64,000 nt of DNA from Coriobacteriaceae bacterium EMTCatB1 (lineage in GTDB: Bacteria > Actinomycetota > Coriobacteriia > Anaerosomatales > Anaerosomataceae), in the NCBI GenBank assembly GCA_001950395.1, contig BDLO01000001.1, positions 469,979-533,978 on the forward strand, read 5' to 3'. The notes under the pieces are model-generated. The model searched no databases. It worked only from the letters and a program-made list of their open reading frames with translations, and had not been told where the DNA came from. Of this stretch, positions 59,240-62,219 are shown piece after piece. The stretch's first letter is position 1. Every line of letters starts with the position of its first letter. Position numbers and translations under genes: made by a program.

Positions 59240-60186
59240 CGTCGTTTCTGCTCGGCGCTTTGTGGGGCGTGGTCGGCGTCGTGGTGATCGCTGGCGGCGC
59301 CGTGATCGGCGTGTGGTGGGAGCGCAAGGTGGCCGGCCGGATCCAGCTCCGCTACGGCCCGCAGCAGATCGGCCCCGCGGGGTCGTTGCAGATGCTCGCC
59401 GACGTTCCGAAGCTCCTGTTCAAGGAGGACGTTGTGCCGAGCGGCGCCGACAAGCCGCTGTTCAAGTACGCGCCTCTGGTCGTGTTCGCACCCGTCGCCG
59501 CCGCGATCGCGGTCATCCCGTTCGCGAAGGGGTGGGCGATGTTCGACACGGCGGTGGGCGTGCTGTTCTTCTTGGCCGTGCCGTCGATCGAAGTGGTGGC
59601 GATTCTCGTCGCGGCATGGGCGCAGCGCAACACCTACTCGGCGCTTGGCGGTCTTCGCGCCGCCTCGCAGATGATCGCCTACGAGGTTCCGCGCGCGCTC
59701 TCGGTGGCTCCGCTCGTGCTGCTCGCCGGCTCGCTGCGCCCGACCGACCTGGTCGCGGCCTGGCGTTGGTGGTGGGTGCCGCTCCTTGCGCTGGCGTTCC
59801 TGATCTACCTCATCTCGTCGATCGCCGAGATGAACCGCGGGCCGTTCGACTTGCCCGAAGCAGAATCGGAGCTGGTGGCGGGCTACTTCGCGGACTACTC
59901 CGGCATGCGGTGGGCGATCTTCATGATGGCTGAGTACGGCGCCATCATCACCACGAGCCTGTTCGCTGCCGCGACCTTCCTCGGCGCGGGCTGGCCGTTC
60001 GACGGCGCGCTTGGCGTCGTGGCGCTGATTGTGAAGGCGGCGGCTCTGGTGACGCTGGTCATGTGGACGAAGTGGACCCTTCCTCGCATCCGACAAGACC
60101 AGCTTCTCCGCTTCTGCTGGACGGTGCTCGTGCCCGCTGCGCTCGTGCAGCTGGCGATCGTCGGGGTGGTGCTCCCATGGCTGTGA
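59236..60186 (+). CDS. nuoH: NADH-quinone oxidoreductase subunit H
   Basis: 316-aa polytopic protein with ERKVAGRIQLRYGPQ and ESELVAGYFADYSGMRW. It directly follows nuoD, with no nuoE/F/G between them. Confidence 0.92.
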   Translation: MTSFLLGALWGVVGVVVIAGGAVIGVWWERKVAGRIQLRYGPQQIGPAGSLQMLADVPKLLFKEDVVPSGADKPLFKYAPLVVFAPVAAAIAVIPFAKGWAMFDTAVGVLFFLAVPSIEVVAILVAAWAQRNTYSALGGLRAASQMIAYEVPRALSVAPLVLLAGSLRPTDLVAAWRWWWVPLLALAFLIYLISSIAEMNRGPFDLPEAESELVAGYFADYSGMRWAIFMMAEYGAIITTSLFAAATFLGAGWPFDGALGVVALIVKAAALVTLVMWTKWTLPRIRQDQLLRFCWTVLVPAALVQLAIVGVVLPWL

Positions 60187-62219
60187 GAGACGAGCGTCCC
60201 AAGACGCCTGAGACGGTCTCGGAGCTTCCGGGCGAGAAGCAAGGGCTGATCGCCGGGGCGATGTCTATCGTCAAGGGTTTCTCGATCACCGTGAAAGCCG
60301 CCGCGACCCGTCCGAGCACGGTCAAGTACCCGAAGGAACGGGTCACCATCAGCCCCAGGTGGCGAGGGCCGCTTGCGCTCAGAGGCGTCCTCGGCAGGGA
60401 CGAGATACCGCTGCTGCGCGGGCCGTCGTACGCGTACAACGAGCTCATCGACGACCTCTACAAGAAGGACCGGCTCCCGCCGTGCGTCGGGAACTGCCCC
60501 GCCAACGTGGACGCTCGCGGGCAGGCGTACCTCATCGCCGACAACCGCGTGGTGGAGGCCTACGAGCTCGTGCGGGACCGCAACATCTTGCCTGGCGTGC
60601 TCGGCCGCATCTGCCACCACCCGTGCGAGAGCGCGTGCAAGCGCAACTTCTACGACGAGCCGATCGCCATCCGGCCGCTGCACCGCTTCGCCTTCGAGGA
60701 GTATCGCAAGATCCGGCACGAGCGCATCTCGCCGTTCCCGCGCACGCAGGGCAAGAGCGTCTGCATCGTGGGGTCTGGTCCGTCCGGCCTGGCTGCGGCG
60801 TACGACCTGCTCAAGCTCGGCTATCGCGTGGTGATGTACGAGCGCGAGCGCAAGCCAGGCGGAGCGCTCAACACCGGCGTGCCGGCGTATCGGCTGCCTC
60901 GCGAGGTGCTGTACGAGGAGATCGACGACATCGTGGGGCTTGGACTTGAGCTCAACACCGGAGTGGAGGTCGGCAAAGACGTCCCGCTCGCGAAGCTCAT
61001 GCGCGAGCACGACGCCGTGCTGCTTGCCGTAGGCCTGCAACAGAGCCGCCTGCTCCCGATCCCCGGGACCGATGCGGAAGGGGTCGTCGGCGCGCTGGAG
61101 TTCCTGTGGTCGGCGAACTTCAAGCACGAGGCGGGCGTGCGTGGCAAGCGGGTCCTCGTGATCGGAGGCGGCAACGTCGCCGTCGACGTCGCGCGCTGCG
61201 CGCTGCGCGTGGGCGCCTCGGAGGTGAAGCTCGCGTGCTTGGAGTCCGAGAGCGAGATGCCGTGCCACCCGTGGGAGATCGCGGAGGCGCTCGACGAAGG
61301 CGTGACGGCGCTGTGCTCGCTCGGGCCAGAAGAGGTGCTGACCAAGCACAACCAAGTGGTGGGGATGCGCATGCGCTCCTGCCTGTCGGTGTTCGACGAG
61401 ACGGGGCGTTTCGCGCCGAAGTTCGGCGAGGAGACCACGGACGTGGCAGCGGACGTGATCGTCTTCGCCATCGGCCAGGCGCCGAAGATCGACCAGCTCG
61501 TGGCGGGAACTGAGCTGTTGGTAAGCGGCAGGGGCCAGCTGGTCGTCGACGGCACGCTGTTCACGACCTCGGTCGACGGCGTGTTCGCGTGCGGCGAGAT
61601 CGTGACGGGCCCTGGCAGCGCCATCGGCTCGATTGCGACCGGCCACGAGGCCGCCACGTCGATCCACCGCTACCTCCAAGGGCTTCCGCTCGACGGGGAC
61701 CGCGTCGCGCGTCCGGTCCCTGTGTATCCTAAGCACGCGCCAGCCGACACGCGCGGCATCGAGTCGAGCCGCCGCAGAGCGGTCATGCCGATGGCCGACC
61801 CATCTGAGCGGGCGACCGACTTCCGGCAAGTCGAGCTCGGGCTCACCCGGCAAGAGGCGATGGCCGAGGCCATGCGGTGCTTGAGATGCGAGTCTGAGGT
61901 GTGCGTGGGGTGCACCTTCTGCGCGAGGACGTGCCCTGACTACGCGATCGCGGTCGAGCGCGTGGACGAGGCCGGTGCGCGGTGCCTCACGCGTTACGAC
62001 CTCGACCTCACGAAGTGCTGCTTCTGCGGATTGTGCGCCGAGCAGTGCCCGACGAAAGCGCTCCATCATACGGGCCAGTACGAGCTGTCGTTCTGGCACC
62101 GCGACCTCATGGTGTTCGACAAGGGCGAGATGCTCCGTCCGCCTATCGGCACGCGCGCCACCGGCCGCGACGGCATCTCGCCGCCAGGGTGCCCCGTCCC
62201 GCGGAAGGAGGAGGCATGA
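60177..62219 (+). CDS. nuoI: NuoI (2x[4Fe-4S] subunit) with an inserted GltD/NfnB-like NAD(P)H-dependent FeS flavoprotein module
   Basis: ATG 60177 overlaps the nuoH stop. NuoI N-terminus: [40 protein letters not shown]. The insert (about nt 60390-61860) has CVGNCP...[43 protein letters not shown] and [13 protein letters not shown]. NuoI ferredoxin core: [12 protein letters not shown] ... [21 protein letters not shown]. It is one uninterrupted ORF. Confidence 0.85.
   Translation: [680 protein letters not shown]

Follow-up and report, generated by a model that had tools for sequence, protein, structure and literature searches.

In the canonical 14-subunit complex I, electrons enter through the three-subunit module NuoEFG, which combines a nucleotide site, a flavin and an iron-sulphur (Fe-S) wire leading to the clusters of NuoI. 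What donates electrons to the widespread 11-subunit form, which has no NuoEFG, has long been an open question (PMC3144371, PMC11238625). Lineage-specific input devices that dock at NuoI are known, namely FpoF with reduced coenzyme F420 (F420H2) in Fpo, and NdhS/NdhV/NdhO together with ferredoxin in cyanobacterial NDH-1 (PMC3144371). A gltD-related protein 'substituting NuoI' has been noted in mbx-like operons of Thermotoga and some proteobacteria, and was proposed to provide a site for NAD(P)(H), the nicotinamide adenine dinucleotides (Degli Esposti 2015, PMC4758237). In the StnC protein, electron cryomicroscopy revealed a cassette that holds flavin adenine dinucleotide (FAD) and two [4Fe-4S] clusters and that hands electrons from NADPH on, along a linear route, to the clusters of its host, a NuoG-like subunit (PMC10482914). 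Here we analyze a stretch of 64,000 nucleotides from Coriobacteriaceae bacterium EMTCatB1 (contig BDLO01000001.1, positions 469,979 to 533,978), referred to as the window, in which an 11-subunit nuo operon contains a gene for a NuoI protein that is split by a flavoprotein module of the StnC type. The gene is termed nuoI* and its product NuoI*.

The nuoI* open reading frame (ORF; window 60177-62219, forward strand) translates into 680 codons without an internal stop. Its ATG at 60177 sits inside the end of nuoH, whose stop codon lies at 60184-60186, so that both genes overlap by 10 nt. At the other end, the stop codon (62217-62219) overlaps the ATG of nuoJ at 62216 (ATGA), and a Shine-Dalgarno sequence for nuoJ, GGAAGGAGGAGG, is located just upstream of that ATG, within the 3′ end of nuoI*. 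The original prediction had described one uninterrupted frame coupled to nuoH and nuoJ, and it is borne out by the lack of stops and by the overlapping start and stop codons at both ends. A longer ORF could begin at GTG 60063; ATG 60177 is preferred because homologues begin at the identical 'MAV...'. The GC content at third codon positions (GC3) is even along the gene (0.80, 0.90 and 0.88). With NCBIfam profiles, the gene order in the window is nuoA-B-C-D-H-I*-J-K-L, which is of the 11-subunit type. Profile searches showed no nuoE, nuoF or nuoG between nuoD and nuoH, nor anywhere in the 64-kb window.

The flanks of the insert were compared with NuoI from other systems. NCBIfam NuoI models match NuoI* in two stretches, the best match being that of residues 572-651 to profile positions 40-120 of 121. 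Once the insert is taken out, residues 31-70 align with the N-terminal signature of NDUFS8/TYKY sequences from the Protein Data Bank (PDB). Between residues 566 and 655, the alignment to the NuoI/TYKY/Nqo9 core and its post-cluster tail is free of internal gaps (E ~1e-19 to 1e-21), and the NuoI-type inter-motif hairpin 'TRYD(L/I)D..KC' and both CxxCxxCxxxCP motifs are matched in this C-terminal core. The core cysteines are C576, C579, C582 and C586-P, and C614, C617, C620 and C624-P. Within NuoI*, the NuoI N-terminus comprises residues 28-70, with a helix at residues 20-43 in the AlphaFold2 model, and the two-cluster core comprises residues 573-655. In canonical NuoI these two parts are separated by about 8 residues, versus about 500 in NuoI*. 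Judged from the flank alignments and from the position between nuoH and nuoJ, the host of the insert is NuoI, in agreement with the NuoI-like ends that had been read from the sequence before. We also considered that the C-terminal dicluster domain might be the cassette's own, as in proteins of the PRK12771 type (that model matches residues 97-630). This was rejected on the ungapped match to NuoI, tail included. When the same domain was aligned with the ferredoxin domains of P0128 and P0133, two GltD-ferredoxin-MvhD(FlpD) fusions, scores reached only 36-40 bits, 14-15 positions were gapped and the tail was left unmatched.

The insert, a module of roughly 55 kDa, covers about residues 71-572 of NuoI*. 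Pfam assigns Fer4_20 to residues 101-178 (66 bits) and Pyr_redox_2 to residues 194-489 (96 bits), both scores exceeding the gathering cut-offs, and Fer4_7 to residues 576-628; each domain was found in the segment where it had been expected. The best PDB sequence matches of the insert are the large subunits of NfnABC/Stn, 9BOV_A (E 5e-96), 8OH5_C and 9N5U_A, followed by NfnB/NfnL, GltD and dihydropyrimidine dehydrogenase (DPD), with E values from 5e-96 to 3e-55 overall. An AlphaFold2 model of NuoI* computed from a 43-sequence alignment is confident (mean predicted local distance difference test, pLDDT, 87.3; predicted template modelling score 0.84). Its fold matches, all with probability 1.00, are 8oh5_C, 9bov_A and 9n5u_A first, and then NfnL/NfnB, GltD and DPD. 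The GltD/NfnB/SudA-type identity given to the insert in the original prediction stands, since all the motifs quoted are present and both Pfam and the fold agree; what changes is the span, now set at the residues given above, and the supposed 'GD-type' motif, which reads G-E.

The Fer4_20 match begins without the first 30 profile positions, and 'RCLRC' directly precedes the NuoI cysteines. We therefore tested for a permutation by re-joining: residues 540-571 were joined artificially to residue 99 onward, and the resulting sequence was aligned to Thermotoga maritima NfnB. The re-joined sequence aligns to NfnB residues 13-192 and is ungapped at the join against 'RCLQCPTHPCVSGCP' (E 3e-42). The motif C-x2-C-x4-C-x3-CP, collinear in NfnB, is split in NuoI*, with C-x3-CP at 103-108 and C-x2-C at 568-571. 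The entry point of the host chain into the flavoprotein lies between the second and third cysteines of this motif, and its exit after C571, four residues ahead of C576, the first NuoI ligand. A second linker bridges the original C-terminus of the flavoprotein and its original N-terminus, which is displaced here. The Fe-S domain of the insert contributes C103-x3-C107-P and C146-x3-C150-x3-C154. The Cys-rich Fe-S N-terminus formerly ascribed to the insert is correct as far as these cysteines are concerned; the module being permuted, C568 and C571, two of its seven cysteines, are found at its C-terminal end instead. By all these comparisons of sequence and predicted fold, the insert is a complete, circularly permuted module of the NfnB/GltD type, with putative sites for FAD, NAD(P)H and two [4Fe-4S] clusters. 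The displaced N-terminal element is likewise present in StnC, 9BOV_A and 9N5U_A.

The large subunit of StnC/NfnABC (8OH5 C, 9BOV A, 9N5U A) is the closest system: this Fe-S subunit, from the realm of complex I and hydrogenases, houses the same permuted GltD/NfnB cassette, whose C-terminal end likewise bears 'RCLxC'. The hosts differ. That of StnC is a soluble NuoG/HydA-like protein with a bifurcating NuoEF/HydBC-like pair, whereas that of NuoI* is the NuoI of a membrane-bound 11-subunit complex. NuoI* has neither the StnC-type [2Fe-2S] N-terminus nor the FdhF-like C-terminal domain, and the window contains no NuoEF/HydBC-like genes. Moreover, StnC keeps a Y-R-R motif where NuoI* has C-L-E. The gltD subunit of mbx-like operons is likewise a GltD-type flavoprotein at the NuoI position of a complex-I-like membrane enzyme (PMC4758237). 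According to its description, that operon is of the Mrp/Mbx kind, with a hydrogenase-like NuoD that has vestigial NiFe-site cysteines and with NuoI substituted (PMC4758237), whereas here the operon is nuoA-N, NuoD is of the quinone type, and NuoI is kept and split. The remark on mbx-like operons is a partial precedent for the idea put forward here (PMC4758237).

The insert resembles NfnB (NfnL), GltD and the N-terminal half of DPD in its fold and in its putative sites for FAD, for NAD(P)H and for two [4Fe-4S] clusters. These relatives are collinear, free-standing or N-terminal domains, NADPH-dependent with Y-R-R, and NfnB is bifurcating; the insert, in contrast, is permuted and embedded. The role proposed for the insert is that of NuoEFG, which is built from unrelated proteins, with flavin mononucleotide (FMN) in NuoF, three subunits and at least five clusters, as compared with a predicted FAD and two clusters within part of one chain. 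FpoF and NdhS/V/O follow the same principle of a lineage-specific device at NuoI; they are separate subunits that use other donors, whereas the device in NuoI* is a covalent part of NuoI and would use pyridine nucleotides. The nearest relatives of the insert outside Nuo proteins are the fusions P0128 and P0133, which are 43-47% identical over residues 99/100-629/630. Unlike NuoI*, they have no NuoI N-terminus, and they show a generic ferredoxin domain with a shorter inter-motif loop, no NuoI tail and a longer spacer after RCLxC. They have an MvhD-like domain and belong to a soluble context, in Wood-Ljungdahl gene clusters. At two loci (L058, positions 9001-11103, and L059, positions 56-2026), GltD-ferredoxin-MvhD(FlpD) genes lie directly upstream of MetV (DUF5981), with MetF next in L058. 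Such fusions may represent the NAD(P)H input of methylene-tetrahydrofolate reductase.

The same architecture is widespread. It was found in more than 120 protein clusters (90%-identity clustering) of 620-710 amino acids and 65-99% identity. Named clusters carry only 'FAD-dependent oxidoreductase' or 'glutamate synthase beta subunit-like', and come mostly from metagenome-assembled genomes (MAGs) of Coriobacteriia. Public records thus give the protein generic names only and do not characterize it, although the domain order that we searched for is common. Among the loci returned from GTDB species-level genomes, 51 of 53 have the architecture (60-90% identity), and at every sufficiently long locus of these 51 genomes the order nuoA-B-C-D-H-I*-J-K-L is kept. 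A search of 1.84 billion representatives yielded about 12 further 50%-identity clusters with both NuoI flanks (36-65% identity), one of which is named Candidatus Subteraquimicrobiales. Distant NuoI* genes with the same insertion site (36-40% identity) lie between nuoH and nuoJ in all three loci examined. A profile search with the distant Y-R-R-type members returned about 25 additional clusters and no Thermotoga or Mbx protein.

Conservation was followed across 43 sequences reaching down to 36% identity. T48, Y51, P52, R63 and G64 of the NuoI N-terminus are invariant, as are C103, C107, C146, C150, C154, C568 and C571 of the insert and all eight cysteines of the NuoI core. The same alignment shows conservation of the glycine motifs for FAD and for NAD(P)H. 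In degree of conservation, the insert's Fe-S and FAD/NAD domains roughly equal the NuoI core; both linkers and both tails do not.

Two distant loci deserve a separate mention. The nuo operon of locus L055 (5351-19962), whose NuoI* is of the Y-R-R type, includes five, not three, antiporter-like (Proton_antipo_M) genes, and so pairs an extended pumping module with a built-in flavoprotein. In P0252 (locus L057, 9001-10902), the cassette lies between the first and second NuoI cysteine motifs, not before the first; this gene, too, is located between nuoH and nuoJ, and it adjoins an rnf operon. The site used in P0252 suggests an independent second insertion event.

The Y-R-R motif of the GltD/NfnB fold forms the site for the 2′-phosphate of NADPH, and an acidic residue at this position usually accompanies NAD(H). 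In all five solved relatives inspected, Y-R-R-(T/S/D) follows the second Rossmann strand, whereas NuoI* of the window has C-L-E-S (354-357). When 143 NuoI* sequences were classified, about 107 showed (C/S/M)-(L/V)-E and 17 showed Y-R-R; the search pattern did not capture the remaining 18. Members of the former class are essentially all of the Coriobacteriia type, and those with Y-R-R are distant. Since C-L-E replaces Y-R-R, the nucleotide used in the Parvivirga/Anaerosomatales lineage is probably NADH; since Y-R-R is retained, it is probably NADPH in several distant lineages. We infer from these motifs that NADH-type and NADPH-type classes of NuoI* exist.

Both partners expected downstream of NuoI are encoded in the operon, and this part of the electron path appears intact. 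NuoB shows, on translation, the tandem-Cys motif for cluster N2. The best PDB matches of NuoD are the complex I subunits 49-kDa/Nqo4/NdhH (E ~1e-101); the large subunits of MBH/MBS/FHL score far weaker, those of MBH/FHL at 1e-56 to 1e-44. NuoD retains 'HPSTHG' and 'DRLDYV', which we take to be the quinone-site His and Tyr positions (Nqo4 H38/Y87). It was also observed that about 27 residues are missing from NuoD between positions 288 and 298 with respect to 49-kDa/Nqo4, so that the alignment is split into 7-288 and 298-367, and that NuoD matches NCBIfam PRK12322 slightly under its cut-off.

On this basis we propose the following path. NAD(P)H would deliver a hydride to the FAD bound in the inserted module, and FAD would release single electrons to the proximal and then to the distal [4Fe-4S] cluster of the module. 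From the distal cluster, electrons would move via the two NuoI clusters and the N2-type cluster in NuoB as far as NuoD with its quinone site, and this flow would be coupled to the pumping of ions through NuoH and NuoA/J/K/L/M/N. The same route could also be taken in reverse. Presumably the cysteines are distributed between the clusters according to the NfnB/DPD pattern, on which our assignment is modelled. The distal cluster would be built from both ends of the insert, with C568, C571, C103 and one of C146/C150/C154 as ligands, and would for that reason be tethered four residues from C576, beside the NuoI clusters. The eighth ligand, which belongs to the proximal cluster, is a Glu in NfnB and a Lys or Cys in StnC (PMC10482914). 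In this way, one polypeptide, assembled into the complex at the position of NuoI, would do what NuoEFG does with three subunits. We also considered flavin-based bifurcation of the NfnB kind, which is unlikely: there is no NfnA-like second path, and StnC, the closest solved relative, is non-bifurcating (PMC10482914).

We estimate at about 70% the probability that the 11-subunit complex, by virtue of NuoI*, is self-contained and works as a reversible NAD(P)H:quinone oxidoreductase, in which the inserted module probably stands in for the missing NADH-oxidising three-subunit module. The pyridine-nucleotide flavoprotein grafted onto NuoI, which the original prediction regarded as a possible input module, is supported by the flanks, by the identity of the insert and by its fold, and an input function is probable. 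A wider proposal is favoured to a slight degree, at little better than even odds: that there is a family of self-sufficient 11-subunit complexes I in which a permuted NfnB/GltD cassette within NuoI replaces the N-module, that the cassette was grafted at least twice, at two sites of NuoI, and that NADH and NADPH versions exist. This family would include Anaerosomatales/Coriobacteriia and relatives, Candidatus Subteraquimicrobiales and several further lineages.

A close counterpart exists in culture: MCL4079030.1 of Parvivirga hydrogeniphila Es71-Z0120 shares 93% identity with NuoI* of the window. Identity rises to 99% with GAV31191.1, a record whose annotated start is an internal Met and which therefore lacks the NuoI N-terminus. 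Public records for these proteins are inconsistent (P0326 = GAV31191.1, P0294 = PKQ20816.1, P0327 = MCL4079030.1) and none is named NuoI; a 642-aa record starts at the internal Met and loses the NuoI N-terminal helix, a 716-aa record is named '4Fe-4S ferredoxin', and further records read 'FAD-dependent oxidoreductase'. In P. hydrogeniphila, the locus MCL4079026-34 was listed as 'NuoACDHJKLM', without NuoI, and ferredoxin was proposed as the donor (PMC9686372); the split NuoI was therefore overlooked. NuoEFG was reported absent from the cultured Anaerosomatales genomes (PMC9686372). The organism is an obligate Fe(III) reducer and a lithoautotroph, with a quinone-linked group 1i [NiFe] hydrogenase, many multihaem cytochromes and a putative reductive glycine pathway; it lacks the NADP-coupled group 3b hydrogenase that is present in its sister genus (PMC9686372).

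Several observations weigh against the proposed NAD(P)H:quinone activity. With the NuoI model TIGR01971 the score is 88.7 bits (cut-off 113.05), and all PRK05888 models remain under their cut-offs; the low scores result from a match interrupted by about 500 residues, an ordinary NuoI being one continuous chain of about 120-200 residues. P. hydrogeniphila has a second locus, nuoNMLKJIHDCBA, with an ordinary NuoI (PMC9686372), and given that second locus the nuoI* complex may have a specialised role. The same organism lives on H2 or formate only, and for both cultured Anaerosomatales respiratory quinones were given as 'not detected' (PMC9686372), so that the forward direction and the quinone acceptor are both called into question. 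It is possible, with odds clearly below even, that the same device works in the reverse role, quinol from a membrane-bound uptake hydrogenase or from formate oxidation, together with the proton-motive force, reducing NAD(P)+ at the inserted module for autotrophic CO2 fixation. The H2/formate lithoautotrophy of the closest cultured relative, which has the group 1i and not the group 3b hydrogenase (PMC9686372), agrees with such a role. Complex I itself is reversible. Nothing in the sequence fixes the direction, however, and C-L-E, which is NADH-like, suits catabolic oxidation of NADH at least as well as biosynthetic supply of NADPH; in addition, many carriers are uncultured MAGs of unknown physiology.

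The report on quinones also bears on a further scheme, in which the complex would be a quinone-independent, ion-pumping ferredoxin:NAD(P)+ oxidoreductase comparable to Rnf, with ferredoxin docking at an exposed NuoI cluster and electrons leaving through the flavin module. Ferredoxin is widely held to feed eleven-subunit complexes (PMC9686372, PMC11238625), and the gltD-related subunit of mbx-like operons was proposed as a site of NAD(P)+ reduction (PMC4758237). We nevertheless regard this scheme as improbable: the operon is of the nuoA-N and not of the Mrp/Mbx type, the ligands of N2 are intact, and NuoD has the His and Tyr positions of the quinone site and matches complex I far above MBH/MBS/FHL. 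Besides, the cultured relative has putative quinol-oxidising multihaem cytochromes and a cytochrome-b-linked hydrogenase (PMC9686372). Even lower is the probability that the insert is a degenerate relic with a structural, assembly or regulatory function only (e.g., sensing of NAD(P)H/NAD(P)+), the electrons coming from ferredoxin. The ordinary NuoI of the second P. hydrogeniphila locus would fit this idea, but the seven cluster cysteines are invariant and the glycine motifs conserved down to 36% identity, the catalytic domains are conserved about as well as the NuoI core, each of the two nucleotide-specificity classes is internally conserved, and the predicted fold is confident and complete. 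As to an artefact, i.e., chimeric assembly or a frameshift joining separate nuoI and gltD-like genes, its probability is practically negligible. Apart from public annotations that differ in the start codon (the 642-aa and 716-aa versions), no support for it was found. The frame is unbroken, GC3 is uniform, and the architecture recurs in the protein clusters described above, in a cultured isolate and, with the same neighbours, in 51 independently assembled species genomes, which upholds the continuous frame of the original prediction; chimerism and frameshift are rejected on this conserved architecture and synteny.

With respect to previous work, lineage-specific input modules, the permuted cassette of StnC (PMC10482914) and the gltD subunit of mbx-like operons (PMC4758237) were known before, and NuoI* is not categorically new. 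What is new here is the circular permutation of the inserted module and its identity with the StnC-type cassette. In the full-text literature, with most subscription journals outside the search, we found no description of genuine nuoA-N operons that encode a quinone-type NuoD together with a NuoI that is kept but split. Nor did the literature searched contain a StnC-type permuted cassette in NuoI, two insertion sites or two nucleotide-motif classes. Surveys of complex I variants are silent on a split NuoI (PMC3144371), and a 2025 survey has only C/D and B/C/D fusions.

NuoI* appears to answer the donor question within the gene itself, as the predicted pyridine-nucleotide site is part of NuoI. 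Should the proposed NAD(P)H:quinone activity be true, the disputed electron donor of 11-subunit complexes would be settled for the lineages that bear NuoI*, and the module would represent a second, independent evolutionary solution for the N-module, with FAD in place of FMN and an NfnB/GltD fold in place of NuoF. The permuted cassette, which occurs in StnC as well as in NuoI, would then be a portable device that connects Fe-S subunits to NAD(P)H. The published metabolic reconstruction of Anaerosomatales, in which the locus has no NuoI and ferredoxin is the proposed donor (PMC9686372), is corrected by the presence of NuoI*. NuoI* is directly testable, as cultured P. hydrogeniphila Es71-Z0120 has the 93% identical gene (MCL4079030.1). 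The features of the operon and of nuoI* are collected in Table 1.

Table 1. Genes of the nuo operon and segments of nuoI*, in window positions (aa, amino acid residues of NuoI*, unless a gene length is given).
Feature	Position	Strand	Evidence or remarks
nuoA	56692..57075	+	NCBIfam NuoA models, E 1.6e-19; start codon uncertain
nuoB	57063..57674	+	NCBIfam NuoB, 231 bits, exceeds cut-off; N2-type cluster ligands
nuoC	57671..58132	+	TIGR01961, 129 bits, exceeds cut-off
nuoD, short form, 367 aa	58136..59239	+	TIGR01962, 460 bits
nuoH	59236..60186	+	NF004741, 311 bits, exceeds cut-off
nuoI*, whole gene, NuoI with inserted flavoprotein module	60177..62219	+	Pfam, NCBIfam, PDB alignments, AlphaFold2
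NuoI N-terminal part, aa 1-70	60177..60386	+	Variable tail, helix aa 20-43, T48-x2-Y51-P52...R63-G64 signature
Linker 1, aa 71-98	60387..60470	+	Mean identity 0.54 in close, 0.11 in distant homologues
Insert Fe-S domain, aa 99-180	60471..60716	+	Pfam Fer4_20, 66 bits
FAD- and NAD(P)H-binding domains (predicted), aa 181-502	60717..61682	+	Pfam Pyr_redox_2, 96 bits; alignments to 9bov, 8oh5, 9n5u, 4ylf, 2vdc
GSGPSG, aa 199-204	60771-60788	+	FAD motif
GGGNVA, aa 330-335	61164-61181	+	NAD(P)H motif
C-L-E-S, aa 354-357	61236-61247	+	Replaces Y-R-R-T of NADPH-dependent relatives
Linker 2, aa 503-539 (~37 residues)	61683..61793	+	Identity 0.53 close, 0.22 distant; pLDDT 77-84
Displaced native N-terminal element of GltD/NfnB module, aa 540-572	61794..61892	+	Ends R-C568-L-R-C571
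NuoI 2x[4Fe-4S] core and NuoI-specific tail, aa 573-655	61893..62141	+	NuoI/TYKY/Nqo9 alignment
Variable C-terminal tail, aa 656-680, and stop	62142..62219	+	Includes nuoJ Shine-Dalgarno
nuoJ	62216..62710	+	NCBIfam NuoJ models; ATGA overlap with nuoI*
nuoK	62707..63003	+	NF004320, 59.6 bits, exceeds cut-off
nuoL, 5′ part, continues beyond window	63000..64000	+	NuoL models, E 2.8e-117

Several other features of the window were noticed. Two large multihaem c-type cytochromes are encoded on the reverse strand, one of 579 aa with 24 CxxCH motifs (29821-31560) and one of 1087 aa with 9 CxxCH motifs and three CWB2 cell-wall-binding domains (31715-34978); both have the appearance of conduits for electrons at the surface of a Gram-positive Fe(III) reducer. 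A membrane H+-translocating pyrophosphatase (24365-26455, forward strand; Pfam H_PPase, 902 bits) is a second ion pump near the nuo operon. Immediately 5′ of nuoA, a gene at 54156-56345 (forward strand) encodes a secreted protein of 729 aa that, as read from its translation only, contains repeated pre-peptidase-like segments and C-terminal repeats resembling cell-wall-binding repeats. Finally, positions 40400-48400 form a low-GC island (57.9% versus about 67.6% elsewhere; GC3 0.58-0.67 versus about 0.9) with genes for polysaccharide synthesis and glycosyltransferases, which was probably acquired horizontally.

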